Positions 102 through 15,045 are shown, numbered from the stretch's first letter. The stretch is 15,045 nucleotides of DNA from Promethearchaeota archaeon (GCA_019057865.1 JAHLWP010000062.1:1-15045), one strand, 5' to 3'. Made by a program: numbers and translations. The notes: a model not told the origin generated them from the letters alone.

Positions 102-309
102 TTCCATTAATTTTAAGCGTTATTAAAATAATAAATCTACAATTTTATTAAACCGTATTTAGTTCTCTTAATTTTTAATTAAACTTTGAAAATTATATTT
201 GAAAATTCCATTAATTTTAGGCGTTATTAAAATAATAAATCTACAATTTTATTAAACCTTATTTAGTTCTCTTAATTTTTAATTAGACTTTGAAAATTAT
301 ATTTGAAAA
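102..309. repeat. 104-bp direct tandem duplication (102-205 and 206-309)
   Basis: The two copies align over 104 bp with 3 mismatches (116a/220g, 155g/259t, 182a/286g). Confidence 0.97.
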
Positions 310-786
310 TGATATTTGAAAATCATAATATCTTATTTCATTTAAGAATAATGTAGGATTAAATTTCTTTGGTAAATCTTGTTTATTAAAAGCAATGATA
401 ATAGGAATGTTTTTAAGGGTTTCGCGAAAATATGATAGTCGTTCTTTCCAAGATGCTAAATTTCGTTCATAAACTTCTTTTTGAGAATCTATAACAAATA
501 TTATTCCATCAACCGCACGTAAGGTAATTGATCTAGTAACAAAATATAAATCTTGGTCCGTGGTGGTATAAATATGAAGTTTTAATCTCCTTTCTTGATT
601 CTGAAATGTAACTATGACATAATCAAAAAATAAAGTCCTATTTACTGTACATTCAATACTGTGTAGCGGCTCCCCCTTACCAAAATGAGAGAATAAGGCT
701 TTAATTGAAGTAGTTTTTCCCGAGAAAGCGGGACCAAAATACACTATTTTTATGCTGATCGTTTTGCCACAGTGATCTATAATCAT
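283..786 (-). pseudogene. MglA-like small GTPase, degenerate and C-terminally truncated (probable pseudogene)
   Basis: KIVYFGPAFSGKTT (G1), RTLFFDY (MglA switch I), VDGIIFVIDSQ and NKQDLP (G4) are MglA-family signatures. G3 reads TTDQ instead of xxGQ, and no G5 or final helix is visible before the stop, which lies inside the tandem repeat. GAGGA precedes the ATG. Confidence 0.7.
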
Positions 787-7451: not shown

Positions 7452-8387
7452 TTGAAAACAATGGAACGATTCATAAAAGTAATAATATCTGGCTTGGACA
7501 ATGCCGGAAAAACATCAATTTTAACTGCTTTAGATAAAAAATATGATTTTCAAAAAGATATCATGGAACTAAAGCCAACCATTAGGGTTGAATATCATAA
7601 GATGAATTTTCTTACAACATTAGTAAATTTTTGGGATATGGGCGGACAAGAAATCTATAGAGAAATCTATCAAAAGAATCAGGAAGTATATTTTGATGGA
7701 ACCGACTTGCTTATTTATGTAATTGATATTCAAGATCCAAACAGATTTGAGAACTCTCTTGAATATTTGAACTCTATTTTACAATTTTTTAAAGATAGTG
7801 ATATGAAAGTACCAATTATTGTTACTTTTCATAAATATGACCCTGATTTAAGGAATGATGAAACAATATTAACTAATATCGAAAAATTAAGAGAAATGAT
7901 TTTTAACAAATATTCAACATTTAAGGTATTATTTCAACGAAGTTCTATTTATGATATTCTTTCTGTTATACAATTGGTTTCATATGGGCTTTCTGTTTTT
8001 GATGAGAAATTTTTTGAACTTTCTGAGTTGTTGGAGAATTATTTGGAACAGTTTAATAGTCAAGCTCTTATTGTGTTTGATAGAAATGGAATAATTATTT
8101 CAGAATATTATAGCGAGGAAATAGAGTCAGATACTTATATTGAACTTTTAGAATCAATAAAGGAGCATCTTTTTTTGCTCAAAAGAATGCAAGAGGAATC
8201 ATATGATGAAAATCATAATTTTTTCACAATTGAAGATAAACTTCTAACATATCTTCACAGAATGAAGATTAAATCAGAGATATTTTTTGCATCAGTTGTA
8301 ATTAAAGAAAATCAAAAGGAGGATTTTTTAGATAAGTTTCCTGATTTTCTTGAAGATTTAACGAAAATTTTAAATGAATTAATCTAA
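7452..8387 (+). CDS. Rag/Arf-like small GTPase with a C-terminal roadblock/longin-like domain
   Basis: G1 GLDNAGKTS, G2 PTI, G3 WDMGGQ, G4 HKYD and G5 SSIYD (the last two are Rag/Gtr-like). The C-terminal ~130 aa contains ALIVFDRNGIIISEY. Alternative ATG at 7461. Confidence 0.9.
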   Translation: MKTMERFIKVIISGLDNAGKTSILTALDKKYDFQKDIMELKPTIRVEYHKMNFLTTLVNFWDMGGQEIYREIYQKNQEVYFDGTDLLIYVIDIQDPNRFENSLEYLNSILQFFKDSDMKVPIIVTFHKYDPDLRNDETILTNIEKLREMIFNKYSTFKVLFQRSSIYDILSVIQLVSYGLSVFDEKFFELSELLENYLEQFNSQALIVFDRNGIIISEYYSEEIESDTYIELLESIKEHLFLLKRMQEESYDENHNFFTIEDKLLTYLHRMKIKSEIFFASVVIKENQKEDFLDKFPDFLEDLTKILNELI

Positions 8388-8449: not shown

Positions 8450-9178
8450 ATGGTAAAAGTTCTAGCAATCAACAGTAGTCCTCGTATGAGTAAAGGAACT
8501 ACAGCTTTGATATTGAATCTCTTTTTGGAAGGCATGAAAGAAAAAGACGCCGAAATCGAGAAATTGTATACTCAAAAACTTAATATAAAACCATGTACAG
8601 CATGCTTTAATTGTTGGTTTCCAACAGAAGGAGAATGTTCAATAAGAGATGATATGGATGATATCCTTCCGAAGATAGCTGAAGCGGATATTTTAGTAGT
8701 TGCTTCACCTCTTTATATAGATGGAATCACAGGGCCCATGAAAAATTTGATTGATCGAATGCTACCGTTGTTAGAACCATTTGTAGAGCTTAGAAATGGT
8801 CATTGTCGTCATCCCCTCCGCGTGTATTCAAAACCAGGTAAGGTTGTATACGTTGCTACATGTGCATGGTGGAAATTAGACAATTTTGATCCCATGATTC
8901 TATATATGAAAGCTATGTGTGCTAATATGGGTAGAGAATTTGCTGGAGCCTTATTACGACCTCATGCAAGTGCTATGATGTATTTAAAAGCAACAGGTAA
9001 ATCTGTTGATGACATCATTAATGCTGCAAAAGAATCAGGTCGTGAACTTATTGAAAATGGTAAAATCTCTAGTGAAAATCTTAAAACGATCAGTCGTGAG
9101 TTGGTTCCATTAGATGAGTATATTCAATTATTTAATCAAGGGATGGAAGAGTCTATCAAATCTGCAAGGAAGAGATAG
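8450..9178 (+). CDS. Iron-sulfur flavoprotein / multimeric flavodoxin (NADPH-dependent FMN reductase family)
   Basis: INSSPR..GTT FMN loop, CTACFNCW......C Fe-S motif and ASPLY..GITGPMKNLIDR. Confidence 0.9.
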   Translation: MVKVLAINSSPRMSKGTTALILNLFLEGMKEKDAEIEKLYTQKLNIKPCTACFNCWFPTEGECSIRDDMDDILPKIAEADILVVASPLYIDGITGPMKNLIDRMLPLLEPFVELRNGHCRHPLRVYSKPGKVVYVATCAWWKLDNFDPMILYMKAMCANMGREFAGALLRPHASAMMYLKATGKSVDDIINAAKESGRELIENGKISSENLKTISRELVPLDEYIQLFNQGMEESIKSARKR

Positions 9179-9200
9179 TAATAGAATATATTAAAAAGGA

Positions 9201-9725
9201 TTAATCAATATTCAAAAGTTTTTTAGCTTTATCTAATAATTTTTCTTTTTTCTTTCTATGATTTTCTACGAATTTCAATACTTTCTCTATACATTCTCGT
9301 TTATGATCTCCACACATTAATTCTCCTTTAATACAACTTTCAAAATCGTTAGCCAATTTTTCATCATCTTCCTCAAAAGTATACATTAGCATTTTATAAA
9401 TCATGCATTTTTGAGGTTCTCCACCTAGTTTTTGTTGTTCCTTTTTATTTTTTCTTCCTCCAGTAAGTGCGCCCATAATTTTCTTTTCTATCGATTCTAA
9501 GGGCTCATTAAACGTAAAGTAGCTATTAGGATTTCTTTTGGCCATTTTATCTGAGCCATCTATTCCAGCTAGTAAATAATGGTAAGTTGCACCGGGTATA
9601 AAGTAGCCTTTATAATATCTACGAGTTAAATCTCTTGTAAGTCTTATGTGAGGATCTTGATCAATTCCAACTGGCACTATTGTTGGTTGTGGATTTTCCA
9701 TGATTTGAGGTAATACAATATCACC
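9201..9725 (-). pseudogene. trpS: 5'-truncated tryptophanyl-tRNA synthetase (C-terminal half only; ORF 9201-9701)
   Basis: PVGIDQDPHIRLTRD, KMAKR (KMSKS-loop variant), ALTGGR and GELMCG motifs. Homology continues upstream of the ATG in frame (GDIVLPQI, to 9725), then an in-frame TGA occurs at 9740-9738. No HIGH motif. Confidence 0.85.
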
Positions 9726-9891: not shown

Positions 9892-11055
9892 ATGCCTGAT
9901 TTTATAGTTACTCCATGGGAAGTTAGCGGTGAAGTAGATTATGATCTATTAATAAAAGAGTTTGGAATAGAACCTATTGATGAAAAATTATTGTTTTATT
10001 TTAAGGAGATTACAAATGAGATTCATCCCTTTCTAAGAAGAAAAGTTTTTTTTGCCCATAGAGATTTTCAATGGATTATTGAGGAATATAAAAAAGGAAA
10101 TCCATTTTATCTTTATACGGGAAGAGGTCCTTCAGGAAATGTCCATCTTGGTCATTTATTACCTTGGATTTTTTCAAAATGGCTTCAAGAAAAATTTAAT
10201 GTAGAATTATGGTTCCAATTAACTGATGATGAAAAGTTTTTATTTAATCAATCCATTTCATTAGAAGAAACTCATAAATATGCGTATGATAATGCTTTAG
10301 ATGTTATTGCCTTAGGATTTAATCCAAAGAAGACATATATCTTTTCTGATATTGATCTTGCAGGTACTCTTTATAGAAATGCTCTGAAAATAGCTAAAAA
10401 AATAACCTTCTCTACAGTCAAAGCAACATTCGGTTTAGACAATAGTTCAAACATAGGTCAAATATTTTATACAAGTATTCAAACAGTTCCAGCTATGCTT
10501 AAAAGTATGATAGAGGGAAAAAATGTTCCATGTTTAATCCCTCTTGCTGTAGATCAAGATCCTCATTTTAGATTATCTAGAGATGTTCTACCAAAACTTG
10601 GTTTTTATAAGCCGGCTCTTATTGAATGTGTATTTCTTCCAAACCTTCAACAAGGTGGGAAAATGTCTGCATCAGTAGAAGATACTGCGATCTTCACAAA
10701 AGATAAACCAGATACAGTAAAAAAAAAAGTAAATAATGCATTCACTGGTGGACAAGCAAATGCAAAATTGCAAAGAGAACTAGGGGGAAATCCTTCAGTG
10801 TGTTCTGTTTATAAATACCATTTTATGCTTTTCACTTTAGATGATAATGAACTTAGAAGTATTCAATCAAAATGTATAGGAGGAGAGTTACTTTGTGGAG
10901 AATGTAAAAAAGATTTAATACAAAAGATTAATAAATTCCTTAATGAGCACCAAAAACAGAGAGAAAAGGCAAAAGACATTTTCGAAGATTATTTACTCAA
11001 AGAAAAAGTAGATTTAAAATATTTAATAAATGAAAAAAATAAAGAAACTCATTAA
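9892..11055 (+). CDS. trpS: Tryptophanyl-tRNA synthetase (archaeal/eukaryote-like type), complete
   Basis: VTPWEV, LRRKVFFAHRD, YLYTGRGPSGNVHLGH (HIGH), QLTDDEKFL, VDQDPHFRLSRD, KMSAS and AFTGG motifs. Confidence 0.98.
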   Translation: MPDFIVTPWEVSGEVDYDLLIKEFGIEPIDEKLLFYFKEITNEIHPFLRRKVFFAHRDFQWIIEEYKKGNPFYLYTGRGPSGNVHLGHLLPWIFSKWLQEKFNVELWFQLTDDEKFLFNQSISLEETHKYAYDNALDVIALGFNPKKTYIFSDIDLAGTLYRNALKIAKKITFSTVKATFGLDNSSNIGQIFYTSIQTVPAMLKSMIEGKNVPCLIPLAVDQDPHFRLSRDVLPKLGFYKPALIECVFLPNLQQGGKMSASVEDTAIFTKDKPDTVKKKVNNAFTGGQANAKLQRELGGNPSVCSVYKYHFMLFTLDDNELRSIQSKCIGGELLCGECKKDLIQKINKFLNEHQKQREKAKDIFEDYLLKEKVDLKYLINEKNKETH

Positions 11056-11058
11056 ATA

Positions 11059-14000
11059 TTAAAGGAGTCTATAGTAATTTTTAAAATGGTTTATTAAAGA
11101 AATAAATTCTCTTCCCTTTTCTGTTAAAATAAACCTAGTAGGAGTAGGAGCCAAACCAATTTTAATTTCAATAGATTGTTTTAGTAGCTCGCTCTCTTTC
11201 TTAAAAAAGCTATGAATAGTAGACGGATTAAATCCTGTAAAGTTTGCTATGTCAGATATGGTAACTTCATGTTTTAACTTTGAAATTTCAAAAATTGCCG
11301 TTAAATATCTTTCGAAAGTTTCATTTATATATAATGGCTTTTTTAAAGGGTCTTTTATTAATACATCACTAAGATTATCCATTGGAGTGAATTTGCGATG
11401 AGCGGAATTGTAATCTTCTTGAATTTTTTTTACTATATTTTTATCTTCATAAATATCATCTAACAAATGAATAAGTTTATATTGAATAACAGTATGACAA
11501 TTAGAACAAATGTACCCTCCTTTTTCTTGTATCAGGATTTTGATAATCTCAGAGCAAGAATAAGTATCATATAATTCATGAGCTTTAATATTTTGTGAAT
11601 CTTCATTTAGATGATGATAATCAAATGCAGATAAATCTTCCCTAATATTAAATTCTTCACAAATATGACAATATTCTCCATAAAATCTTTCTATAATATA
11701 TCTTTTCTTTATTTTTCTAAGCATATTTTTCTTTTTAGCAGCCTTTTCATTTGGAGATAAATCTTTAGTTAGTCTGAAATTATTTATTGAAACCCTAACA
11801 AGTAAATGAATCATTTCAGCAGGAAAAGAAAAAAGATCCTTCCAATTAACAATATAATCAAATTCATCATTAAAATGTAATCTTCTATGATGATTTCTAC
11901 ATAAGAGAATTATTCCTTCTGATTCCAATAAATTGATCAAATCTTCTAATACATTTGGATTGCCACGATTTTTATTAAATAATAAATATAAATTATCTGA
12001 TTTGAACTTATTCTCTTTTTCAGCAGAATCATGGTGGCAATCCAAAGCTTTTAATCTGTGATTTTTTAAATTAATTTCCAATCCTTCTTTAACACACTCT
12101 GGGCATTTAATAAGGTCACCATCAAAATATCTTCCATTATAAATATTTTTTAGTACATATAATTTTAATTTATTTGCGATAATTCTTCTATATTCTCTAT
12201 CTCTCTTTTCTTTTTCTTTTTTAGGAAGCTTCTCACGACTCCCCCAGCGAATTGGGAAAAAAGTAGGAAACTTTTCTTTTAAAGTGTTAAAAATGTTATT
12301 AATTGAATTATACAATTTCCCTTTTTGTAATAAATTAATATTTCTCTCTCTTAAATATTCTACCAAAGGATTTAATGAAAGAAGCGCGCCAATTTTTTTA
12401 TGTGTGATACTTGAAATAATAAGGCTTCTTACTATTTCAACCAAATCAGAAAAATATTTTTCAAATTTTTCTTGTTTGTAAATTATAATTTCACAGAGCA
12501 TCTTGATATCTTTTTGAGACAGTTGTGGGGGAAGGTTTACATTCATTAAAATATTATTTTTCAAAATTGTAACCATATCAGATGTCTTAATATCAATATC
12601 CTTTAAAATATCAAAAAAATATAAAGAAATGAAATTTTTAATTCTTCCAAGTTTATATTCCGAAAGAAGAAATTCTGTTTTTGGGTATGAATCTTTAAAA
12701 TACTTTCTATAATAATAACCCAGATTGCTTGGATTTACATTCGCGATTTTGCTTATTTTAGTAATAGAAATTCTTGGCATATTTTTATTTGAAATAATGG
12801 TAGTATAAATGATGCTAGTAGCAATTAATCTAAAATTAATATTTGTAGAGATAGAAATTTCCTTTTTCTTTACTCTTGAAATAAATTCACTTAATATCTC
12901 TTGAGATTTTGACCATATGAACTCTTTTTGGTCTTGTGAAGCTTCAATTAAATTATTTAAATTTTTTAAATGTTCTGTTACTTTTTGCTTAAAATGAGTT
13001 ATATTGGGAGGTGGTACAGCAGCAATCTCGTTAATTTTCTTTTTATGTCTCATGTATAATGCATTTTCTCTTTGATTTAATTTCTTCTTATAATTTATTA
13101 ACCCCACTGATTTTATTGGTGAAATATTATAAACTAATTTTCGAATGTACTTAGCATGAAGTTGTTTAAATTTAGATATATTTTTTGAGTGTTGTTTTAA
13201 GACTTCATATTTTTTGGACAGATGTCTGAGAAATTTATATTTTATTTCATTAATAAGCGCGGGATTCCACCAATGATGTTCTTGATAATACGCTTTAAAT
13301 CCGCTTATATTCAAATATAAATGTAAGTGAATAGGGCTTATATTTAATAGTTTGTTTATAATGAAATTCAACACTTCTTTATTTTTTTCAGTTAATTCTC
13401 CTTTTTCATATCTTTTATATAATTCTTCTAATTTTTCATATTCTTGAAAATTTTGAAGTATCTCTTTCAAAACTACTTTAAGTTCAGAGCTGAGCTCTTC
13501 TTCGTTAGATCCTTCTATCCACTTTTTAAGTTTCTTTCGCCATTCCTCCTCTTCTTGTTCTTTCTCTTCTAACTCTTTAGTTTTTAATTCTTGTCTTTCT
13601 AGCCATTGGCTAAATCCTTTTGTTTCTTTTCCAGCATAAATTGGTCTTTTACCAGTTTCTTGGCGATATAATTGCTGAAGCTTTTCATATTCTTCTTCTT
13701 CAGATTCTTTACTCTCTAGCTTGTCTTCTTTCTCAATGGATTCGTTGATTCTTTCGTGATATGGTTCCACATCATCAGTTTCTATATCATTTAATTCTGT
13801 TTTGATCTCTTCTTCTGCTTCTTTTTTTTCCACTTCTTCATGAGTTTTTCTATTGTCATCGTTATCATAAACAGAGATTTGTTTAATCTGTTCCTGTTCT
13901 TTTAGATCTGAGTTTATTTCATCAGTTCCAGCTTGTTCGATTCTAAGTTCTTCACTCACATCTTTTTCTTGTTCATTTTGTTGTTTTTCTTCTATTTCAT

Positions 14001-15045
14001 TTAAGAAGAAATCCTTCGCAATTTCTTCCACCTGCTCGTCTATTTCTTCTTGAGATTTTCCTTGTTGGTGTAATTTTTCTTCAGTATTTAAAAAATATTC
14101 TATTGCATCTACCCTATCAATCTCTTCTCTTACATCATCGTCATCCTCTTCATCTTCGTGGTCGATTAATTTTAATTTTTCTTGTTGTTCATAGAGCTTT
14201 TCAACACTTTTTAACATTTTATAAGTTTCTTCTGCCTCCTGCATTAAATTACTGATCTCTTCAGAACTCTTACCTTCTTGTTCATACTGTTCATATTTTT
14301 CCCAGAGATAATCAAACTCTTCTGGCTCTATCTCTGCTTCTTTAGGTATTTTATCAACATCTCCCTCTTGTTCATCACCAGAAAACATTTCCTCAATATG
14401 CTCTTCCTTCTGTTTTTCAGTAATTTCTTTCTCTTGTTCCTCTAATTCTTGGGCCTCTTCCTTTTCTTCTTTATTACTATTTCTTTCTTTAATTTCCCTA
14501 TAAGCTTGCTCTGCATTAAAAGCAGTATTATCATTTTCTTCTTCAGGATAGCCTAACTTCTCATCATATTCTTTCAGCATGCGCCCCAATTCTTCCATAT
14601 CCCTAACAAATTCTATCTCTTCGGTATCAATAATAGGATCTTGGTCATTTTCGTATTCTTCTGGATCTATCTCTATTGCTTCTTCCTCATTCTCTAGGTA
14701 CTCCTCTTCCTCCTCAGTATATTCCTCACTTTCAGCTTGAAGTTCTTCCTGATTTTCTCCTTCTATTTCGAGATTTTCATGCATTAATACAGTACTTTGA
14801 GAGCCAATATTTTCATATTCCTCTTCCATCTCATTAAATTGCTCATCAAACTCCTTATCAAGCTCCTCATCTGTTAATTCTCCCATCTCATGAAATCCAG
14901 AATTAAACCCCCCATCAATCTCATCTGTTAATTCTTCCATCTCATGAAATCCGGAATTAAACCCCTCATCAGTCTCATCTGCTAACTCTTCCATCTCATG
15001 AAATCCACTATTAAATTCCTCATCAGTCTCATCTGCTAATTCTCC
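11059..15045 (-). CDS. Giant multidomain protein (>1328 aa, 5'-partial): 18-aa repeats, acidic region, TFIIB-like cyclin fold, two HNH-like modules, winged HTH
   Basis: The frame stays open from 14994 to the window end (GELADETDEEFNSGFHE precedes the track's Met), so the true start lies outside the window. Domain calls come from motifs described in the findings. Confidence 0.85.
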   Translation of the reverse strand, partial: GELADETDEEFNSGFHEMEELADETDEGFNSGFHEMEELTDEIDGGFNSGFHEMGELTDEELDKEFDEQFNEMEEEYENIGSQSTVLMHENLEIEGENQEELQAESEEYTEEEEEYLENEEEAIEIDPEEYENDQDPIIDTEEIEFVRDMEELGRMLKEYDEKLGYPEEENDNTAFNAEQAYREIKERNSNKEEKEEAQELEEQEKEITEKQKEEHIEEMFSGDEQEGDVDKIPKEAEIEPEEFDYLWEKYEQYEQEGKSSEEISNLMQEAEETYKMLKSVEKLYEQQEKLKLIDHEDEEDDDDVREEIDRVDAIEYFLNTEEKLHQQGKSQEEIDEQVEEIAKDFFLNEIEEKQQNEQEKDVSEELRIEQAGTDEINSDLKEQEQIKQISVYDNDDNRKTHEEVEKKEAEEEIKTELNDIETDDVEPYHERINESIEKEDKLESKESEEEEYEKLQQLYRQETGKRPIYAGKETKGFSQWLERQELKTKELEEKEQEEEEWRKKLKKWIEGSNEEELSSELKVVLKEILQNFQEYEKLEELYKRYEKGELTEKNKEVLNFIINKLLNISPIHLHLYLNISGFKAYYQEHHWWNPALINEIKYKFLRHLSKKYEVLKQHSKNISKFKQLHAKYIRKLVYNISPIKSVGLINYKKKLNQRENALYMRHKKKINEIAAVPPPNITHFKQKVTEHLKNLNNLIEASQDQKEFIWSKSQEILSEFISRVKKKEISISTNINFRLIATSIIYTTIISNKNMPRISITKISKIANVNPSNLGYYYRKYFKDSYPKTEFLLSEYKLGRIKNFISLYFFDILKDIDIKTSDMVTILKNNILMNVNLPPQLSQKDIKMLCEIIIYKQEKFEKYFSDLVEIVRSLIISSITHKKIGALLSLNPLVEYLRERNINLLQKGKLYNSINNIFNTLKEKFPTFFPIRWGSREKLPKKEKEKRDREYRRIIANKLKLYVLKNIYNGRYFDGDLIKCPECVKEGLEINLKNHRLKALDCHHDSAEKENKFKSDNLYLLFNKNRGNPNVLEDLINLLESEGIILLCRNHHRRLHFNDEFDYIVNWKDLFSFPAEMIHLLVRVSINNFRLTKDLSPNEKAAKKKNMLRKIKKRYIIERFYGEYCHICEEFNIREDLSAFDYHHLNEDSQNIKAHELYDTYSCSEIIKILIQEKGGYICSNCHTVIQYKLIHLLDDIYEDKNIVKKIQEDYNSAHRKFTPMDNLSDVLIKDPLKKPLYINETFERYLTAIFEISKLKHEVTISDIANFTGFNPSTIHSFFKKESELLKQSIEIKIGLAPTPTRFILTEKGREFISLINHFKNYYRLL
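14866..15045. repeat. 54-bp coding tandem repeat (at least 3.3 copies, runs off the right edge)
   Basis: Units start at 14866, 14920, 14974 and 15028 (ctcatctg[t/c]taa...) and encode M(E/G)EL(A/T)DE(T/I)D(E/G)(E/G)FNSGFHE on the minus strand. Confidence 0.96.

Follow-up and report, generated by a model that had tools for sequence, protein, structure and literature searches.

The window analyzed here is the whole of contig C83 (15,045 bp; JAHLWP010000062.1:1-15045), one of 87 contigs in a 4.26 Mb genome bin of a Promethearchaeota archaeon (GCA_019057865.1) with a GC content of approximately 25% and an estimated contamination of 5%. A single open reading frame (ORF) on the minus strand occupies positions 11059 to 15045 and encodes a giant modular protein, in which an acidic arm and a helical adaptor are followed by a C-terminal tail predicted to target DNA. 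Its neighbors on the contig include small GTPase and tRNA synthetase genes, and trpS (9892-11055) is convergent with the giant gene at a distance of 3 nt. These neighbors and the closest database relatives of the giant assign it to the Promethearchaeota, the Loki-type Asgard archaea. Comparison of the window ORF's own sequence against Pfam and NCBIfam returned nothing significant. The features of the locus are as follows.

11059-15045, minus strand: whole giant ORF, 1328 open codons and a stop; truncated on the 5′ side by the end of the contig, with the true N-terminus missing
14866-15045, minus strand: tandem repeats, 54 bp unit, 3.3 copies, 89% matches, encoding acidic units of 18 residues
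13684-15045, minus strand: polyacidic arm, residues 1-454, delimited by composition (39% D/E, net charge -136)
13171-13683, minus strand: family-defining helical adaptor, residues 455-625, delimited by alignment, with the motifs TGKRPIYAGK.TKGF..WL and WWNP
13069-13170, minus strand: basic junction, residues 626-659, where similarity to most paralogs stops (residues 614-639)
11062-13068, minus strand: putative captured payload, residues 660-1328, matching a complete copy of a free-standing protein family
12673-13008, minus strand: TFIIB/TFB-type cyclin repeat, residues 680-791, from a fold search with the tail model
12139-12672, minus strand: second helical domain, residues 792-969, from the tail model
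11875-12129, minus strand: HNH-like zinc finger 1, from its motif (C981, C984, H1004, H1005, C1049, N1051, H1052, H1053, H1057)
11473-11694, minus strand: HNH-like zinc finger 2, from its motif and a profile (C1126, C1129, H1144, H1145, C1180, N1182, C1183, H1184)
11062-11334, minus strand: C-terminal winged helix-turn-helix of DtxR/MntR/MarR type, residues 1238-1328, from fold and profile searches
11059-11064, no strand: insertion boundary; homology to the empty site of the related genome G227 ends at 11063, inside the stop and last codon of the giant gene

A preliminary description of this ORF had proposed an extremely acidic, low-complexity front of approximately 490 residues, a helical linker and a basic C-terminal part. 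The charge split is borne out by the composition, with a net charge of -136 over residues 1-454, approximate neutrality over residues 455-625 and a net charge of +35 (isoelectric point: 9.45) over residues 626-1328, and the linker corresponds to the helical adaptor of approximately 170 residues. The acidic front is shorter than proposed, ending near residue 454, and is more than low-complexity sequence. The arm shares 65-90% amino acid identity with at least seven paralogs, and arm and adaptor together show ratios of non-synonymous to synonymous substitution (dN/dS) of 0.21-0.52 among the paralogs (arm: 0.25-0.41). This purifying selection argues that the arm is not junk. Complete paralogs and homologs begin directly with acidic sequence, with neither a signal peptide nor a transmembrane segment found in those examined, and no Pfam, NCBIfam or PADLOC match was obtained for the arm and adaptor. 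The final 180 bases of the contig consist of the 54-bp tandem repeats, and it is these repeats of the arm that broke the assembly.

The ORF belongs to a family of giant modular proteins that is present in several copies. Its members consist of the arm, the adaptor and a DNA-targeting cassette at the C-terminus that is replaced through recombination, and we hold the modular architecture and the mobility of the family with high confidence. The genome contains at least ten paralogs with an arm and adaptor, nearly all at contig ends. Copies of these two parts are found on C23, C48, C49, C63, C69, C77 and C80, with a fragment on C58, while C4 and C9 carry a second, more distant type of giant. In at least eight paralogs, identity to the window copy at the DNA level is 78-95% over up to 1.9 kb and ends at residues 614-639, or at residue 694 for the C77 copy, which retains the first 30 residues of the window-type tail as a scar. 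Beyond the breakpoint the paralogous proteins are unrelated, and no DNA sequence is held in common downstream of the paralogs. The window and C49 copies, for example, are 90-94% identical across arm and adaptor and have unrelated tails. The reverse is seen for the C80 copy and one in G227, where the fronts share 35% and the tails 69% identity. The combination of near-identical fronts with unrelated tails, and of the reverse, indicates that the C-terminal cassette is swapped just after the adaptor.

At least seven tail classes were distinguished among 50 family members, and the same classes occur in combination with different fronts. They comprise LAGLIDADG nucleases (Pfam e-values: 1e-8 to 2e-4), helix-turn-helix arrays with a PD-(D/E)xK-like end, a zinc-ribbon nuclease type with a treble clef, repeats with a DEDD exonuclease and winged-helix repeats accompanied by a further double HNH, in addition to several tails of unknown type. 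The earlier suggestion of an exchangeable C-terminal payload on a conserved carrier is thus upheld by the sharp loss of identity after residues 614-694, the variety of tails and the decoupling of front and tail. The preliminary description had also recognized that invariant C-termini across homologs would speak against such a model, and they prove to vary. It had further suggested that the arm may serve as a DNA mimic or autoinhibitor, and had named a polymorphic effector, a defense protein and a domesticated homing endonuclease as candidate functions.

A free-standing twin of the window tail was found in another metagenome. This protein (P0167; 675 amino acids) has its own start and is 96% identical over its full length to residues 660-1328 of the giant. 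An exhaustive HMMER search with residues 680-1328 recovered 202 cluster representatives, many of which are 650-680 amino acids long or carry other N-termini, and three relatives of the tail family are encoded elsewhere in the same genome. Judged from these alignments, the window tail is an entire free-standing Asgard gene that was captured and fused in frame.

The tail was modeled with AlphaFold from an alignment of 45 of these homologs (predicted local distance difference test, pLDDT: 91.5). Residues 680-791, which correspond to the first TFIIB repeat, retrieve TFIIB, TFB and Brf chains as the top 26 rows of the fold search (Z: 12.3-13.8; root-mean-square deviation, rmsd: ~2 Å over ~100 residues), ahead of true cyclins (Z: 10-11.8), and superpose on 1ais_B with a Z of 12.7 and an rmsd of 1.8 Å over 95 residues. 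The Pfam TFIIB model matches one of the 45 tail homologs (2.5e-4) and not the window sequence. No zinc ribbon or B-reader precedes the cyclin core in the window protein, the adaptor and basic junction standing there instead, and two of the 45 free-standing homologs show a weak match to the Zn_Ribbon_TF profile (0.0056). The helical domain at residues 792-969 may represent a second cyclin-like repeat. Foldseek aligns approximately 254 columns of the model to the two-repeat TFB core (probability: 0.99; rmsd: 13 Å), and VIA aligns repeat 1 only. At the C-terminal end, the winged helix gives Z scores of 9-10 against MarR/DtxR proteins, and its family profile matches the DtxR-type repressor SloR (e-value: 1.2e-5).

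Between these domains lie two collinear units that both carry the pattern CxxC...[DC/DY]HH...CxN[CH]H, and whose similarity to each other is not significant (e-value: 0.47). Ten of the pattern residues are conserved in at least 90% of the 45 homologs (C1049, H1052, H1053, C1126, C1129, H1145, C1180, N1182, C1183 and H1184). Unit 2 matches the phage profile phrog_2255, annotated as 'HNH endonuclease' (e-value: 5.8e-6), and is weakly matched by Escherichia coli McrA (e-value: 0.083). No profile match was obtained for unit 1, and Pfam HNH (PF01844) matches one of the 45 homologs (7.6e-5) and not the window sequence. The model of residues 964-1239 (pLDDT: 93), in which a helical insert of approximately 40 residues divides the HNH-like hairpin, retrieved nothing with Foldseek and a best Z of 3.4 in a wide VIA search, with weak scores against the HNH regions of Cas9 and IscB (Z: 2.4-2.7). 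We refer to the units as HNH-like fingers, since the motifs and one profile support this assignment and no fold match exceeds a Z of 3.4. The two fingers, with their helical insert, are probably catalytic. Of the four nucleic-acid modules named in the preliminary description, the cyclin repeat and winged helix therefore stand on a well-supported model and on fold matches with Z scores of approximately 13 and 9-10, and the double HNH on motifs and one profile, its fold being unmatched.

The adaptor occurs in 16 outside proteins, every named one of which belongs to the Promethearchaeota. Its profile detects 113 of the 134 genomes of one Asgard taxonomic family and 3 of the 265 genomes elsewhere in the phylum, many of these matches being weak. 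Strong full-length matches are found in approximately 40 genomes of that taxonomic family, with up to 8-11 copies per genome. The tail family is present in 31 of the same 134 genomes and in none of the 265 others. On the genomes searched, adaptor and tail family are both restricted to a single taxonomic family within the Loki-type Asgard archaea (Promethearchaeota). A metagenome scan yielded two loci only, a search of the ESM Atlas with the adaptor gave no usable match, and a full-text literature search found no description of the family, although an earlier mention in archaeal polymorphic-toxin work is possible.

Several variations on the adaptor were observed. Tandem double adaptors are present in some giants (G232:C54, G251:C316, G230:C63 and G268:C20), and in many giants the adaptor is followed by a second conserved module containing ...KNY[IV][KR]WGWDF. 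Single ORFs of approximately 260 residues in many related genomes (e.g. G278:C2:24771-24857 and G256:C123:2695-2781) furthermore match the initial 30 residues of the adaptor profile (L..Y...TGKRPIYAGK.TKGF..WL), which may constitute a shared short binding motif.

Adjacency to other genes was counted in 21 distinct outside loci in which upstream DNA was present. In 15 of these, a HerA/DUF87-like ATPase of 630-730 residues is encoded directly upstream of the giant on the same strand, and the same arrangement is found in the genome under study on C49, on C70 (which continues into C4) and on C51 (which continues into C9). The Walker A, Walker B and arginine finger motifs of this ATPase are intact, and it weakly matches the defense models HerA (PADLOC; 2.9e-8) and mad8 (4.8e-11). 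The gene before the ATPase encodes either a protein of approximately 255 residues with four to six transmembrane segments or a 1280-residue protein with three to five such segments and a faint HerA match. The ATPase is present in 31 of the 39 adaptor-positive genomes, which are related to each other. The usual order in relatives is a membrane protein, an intact HerA/FtsK-type ATPase and the giant last, and we infer the same order for the window copy. Members of the Sir2, DUF4297 and NurA effector families were not detected by Pfam or PADLOC in any giant examined.

Some cassettes show further peculiarities. At one HerA-giant cassette of G179 (L026:3398-5657), genes for Csm6 (CARF-HEPN) and Cas6 lie just upstream. 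In a variant cassette (C75:142634-148124), the HerA-like protein is 944 residues long and has a hydrophobic N-terminus, and the protein encoded after it (890 residues) starts with acidic sequence and has no detectable adaptor. Upstream of the start of the C58 giant lies an AT-rich non-coding stretch of approximately 550 bp (C58:54701-55250; L014:4701-5250), which recurs with 87-98% identity at C33:1938-2309 and C61:5367-5765 and is also found at the ends of contigs C31, C50, C57, C66 and C73. This stretch has no match in Rfam and seems to represent a 5′ region common to the cassettes. The first ~15 codons of the C58 giant are shared with a 347-residue gene on C33.

The gene order of the window is kept up to trpS in three related genomes (G227, G209 and G201), with no giant following trpS. 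Together with the insertion boundary at 11059-11064, these empty sites identify the giant gene as an accessory insertion at the 3′ end of trpS. For the copies on C80, C23 and C48, too, the corresponding site lacks the giant in three relatives in each case; G227 has a giant of the same tail class at the C80 site. In the pair G179 and G183, the tail and a flanking gene are common to both, the front differs, and HerA is present in one of the two only.

Contig C67 holds the genes found after trpS in the relatives, and its first 55 bases coincide exactly with the final 55 of C33. At the opposite end of C33, a 1280-residue cassette gene begins, oriented towards the window giant. These three observations make a HerA cassette upstream of the window copy probable. 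C33 also encodes AbiEi (PADLOC; 1e-47), JetC/JetD-like (Wadjet-like) proteins and a set of SMC-like, Mre11-like and HerA-like proteins. As such, trpS and the next core gene are probably separated by an accessory island of more than 30 kb that includes AbiEi and Wadjet-like genes.

On the other side of trpS, the window contains a flavodoxin-like ORF of 242 residues (8450-9178, plus strand) and one of 166 residues (9201-9701, minus strand), the latter a copy, diverged to 37% identity, of residues 213-362 encoded by the full trpS alongside. Both are absent from the syntenic region of the three relatives, where a GTPase gene adjoins trpS. The region 8450-9701 resembles either a second small insertion or what is left of a trpS that was displaced. 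P-loop motifs are found in two small GTPase-like ORFs, at 283-786 (minus strand) and 7452-8387 (plus strand), and the latter is syntenic in the three relatives (69-72% identity). Small GTPase-like genes of this P-loop type have been reported for Asgard archaea.

The cassette resembles several known systems in part. HerA-nuclease systems include the NurA-HerA end-resection complex and the anti-phage Sir2-HerA and HerA-DUF4297 pairs. As in these, a constant HerA-type hexameric ATPase is encoded beside a nuclease or effector that varies. However, the effectors of the giants are unrelated to NurA, Sir2 and DUF4297, the cassette includes a polytopic membrane protein, its ATPase is only weakly similar to defense HerA models, and some genomes hold 8-11 copies of the giants. 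The first cyclin repeat superposes on those of archaeal TFB and eukaryotic TFIIB (Z: 12.7-13.8; rmsd: ~2 Å), but in the window copy it lacks a zinc ribbon or B-reader and is fused to HNH-like fingers and a winged helix. Polymorphic toxins (LXG of the type VII secretion system, Rhs and contact-dependent inhibition types; Zhang, Aravind and co-workers 2012, PMC3482391) similarly combine a constant N-terminus with variable C-terminal nucleases, are renewed from stand-alone cassettes and occur in several copies per genome. In the type VII system, an ATPase of the FtsK/HerA superfamily likewise handles the toxins. The giants differ in that no immunity gene adjoins them and no known trafficking domain or signal is present; their constant part is a polyacidic arm with an Asgard-only adaptor, their host is archaeal, and their tails are DNA enzymes of sequence-specific type with large DNA-binding modules. 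Free-standing homing endonucleases (phage T4 Seg/Mob; F-CphI, PMC6083498) share with the giants the placement of HNH or LAGLIDADG proteins between conserved genes, presence or absence among relatives and the lack of an immunity gene. In the giants, by contrast, the tail is joined to 650 residues of acidic arm and adaptor, most often behind ATPase and membrane protein genes, and cleavage of the empty site is a hypothesis.

With guarded confidence, we regard as the best overall explanation a mobile conflict module, with a site-directed tail acting on DNA and a HerA-type motor acting on the arm and adaptor. The cyclin repeat and winged helix would bind a specific DNA site, which the HNH fingers would cut, and the HerA-type motor and its membrane partner would act on the giant through the constant arm and adaptor. 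The motor may hold the giant inactive, unfold it or move it, and the polyanionic arm would mimic its usual DNA substrate. Such action of the tail on DNA, combined with handling of the arm by a motor, would make the whole a mobile conflict module and not a housekeeping gene. The parts of this explanation differ in strength. That the tail, as predicted from its sequence, is an active nuclease appears moderately probable, as does the linkage of the window copy to HerA, whereas the role of the arm as the handle of the motor is a tentative suggestion. If the giant is a conflict module, intracellular defense and the role of an exported toxin are both possible functions of low and nearly equal probability. 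A more elaborate version, in which a membrane-anchored HerA/FtsK-type DNA pump has become a protein translocase that threads the DNA-like arm and exports site-specific nucleases between Asgard cells, with immunity residing in the absence of the target site, we consider improbable.

Several observations weigh against the conflict-module explanation. The upstream region of the window copy itself is missing and its HerA link derives from the contig graph, while 6 of the 21 outside giants have no adjacent HerA. A co-evolving HerA-adaptor docking pair was considered and rejected, the two identity matrices being uncorrelated (Spearman: 0.00; permutation p: 0.45). The adaptors furthermore cluster by genus, which suggests concerted evolution among copies and argues against a tight docking pair. 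Behind 11 copies in this genome and 20 outside, no immunity-like gene was found, unrelated and often convergent housekeeping genes being located there; this makes a classical polymorphic toxin less likely and agrees with site-specific nucleases. Defense genes flank 2 of approximately 12 cassettes (the C33 island and one G179 locus), and a general association with defense islands was rejected, ten neighbors of other cassettes having no PADLOC match. A pattern scan of IMG/VR viral contigs did not find the adaptor or the tail, and the HNH fold was not recovered from the tail model.

The lack of immunity genes also speaks for an alternative in which the element is selfish, the tail acting as a free-standing homing endonuclease that cuts the empty site and is copied by repair, so that the tail sets the location and the arm, adaptor and HerA are cargo or helpers. 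The tail families are classic homing-nuclease types (LAGLIDADG and HNH) with large DNA-binding modules, the 96% identical twin is free-standing, and presence/absence polymorphism is seen at four sites at the 3′ ends of conserved genes, with the insertion boundary at the stop codon of the tail. In two pairs (C80/G227 and G179/G183), tail and site travel together with different fronts. This linkage could, however, reflect vertical inheritance with losses, and in G225, which has the nearest giant with the window tail type (50% identical), the giant and trpS are located on separate contigs. Homing would also leave unexplained the 450-residue arm, under purifying selection and homogenized among copies, and the conserved ATPase and membrane genes, and we consider it unlikely as the overall explanation. 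The unrecovered HNH fold would be accommodated by a non-catalytic DNA-binding regulator, in which the zinc modules of the fingers have a structural role, promoter DNA or the TATA-binding protein is contacted by the TFB-like repeat and winged helix, and the arm serves as an activation or decoy region. The proximity of the cyclin repeat to TFIIB/TFB and the weak TFIIB zinc-ribbon match in some free-standing homologs are consistent with this. A regulator is nevertheless quite improbable, given the near-invariance of the His and Cys residues in both fingers, the match of unit 2 to a profile of HNH endonucleases, the LAGLIDADG, exonuclease and PD-(D/E)xK-like tails found at this position in sister copies, and the accessory, mobile nature of the gene. 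An assembly artefact or decaying pseudogene might be suspected for an ORF cut by a contig end within tandem repeats, in a bin with approximately 5% contamination, but 1328 codons without a stop, a dN/dS well below 1 and full-length homologs in many independent assemblies render it barely credible.

No known organisms are more closely related to eukaryotes than the Asgard archaea, and little of the biology of their conflicts and mobile elements has been mapped. The family described here is abundant in one of their taxonomic families and joins a DNA-translocase-type ATPase and a membrane partner to a giant protein whose predicted DNA-cutting tail is swapped like a cartridge. Its repeats fragment assemblies, which matters for the reconstruction of Asgard genomes. 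Should the arm prove to be a substrate of the motor, the family would show the conversion of a DNA pump to protein handling, and export, if it occurs, would make it a new secretion system of archaea. Tails that proved to be homing nucleases would constitute a large untapped set of long-site DNA enzymes, including one derived from TFB.

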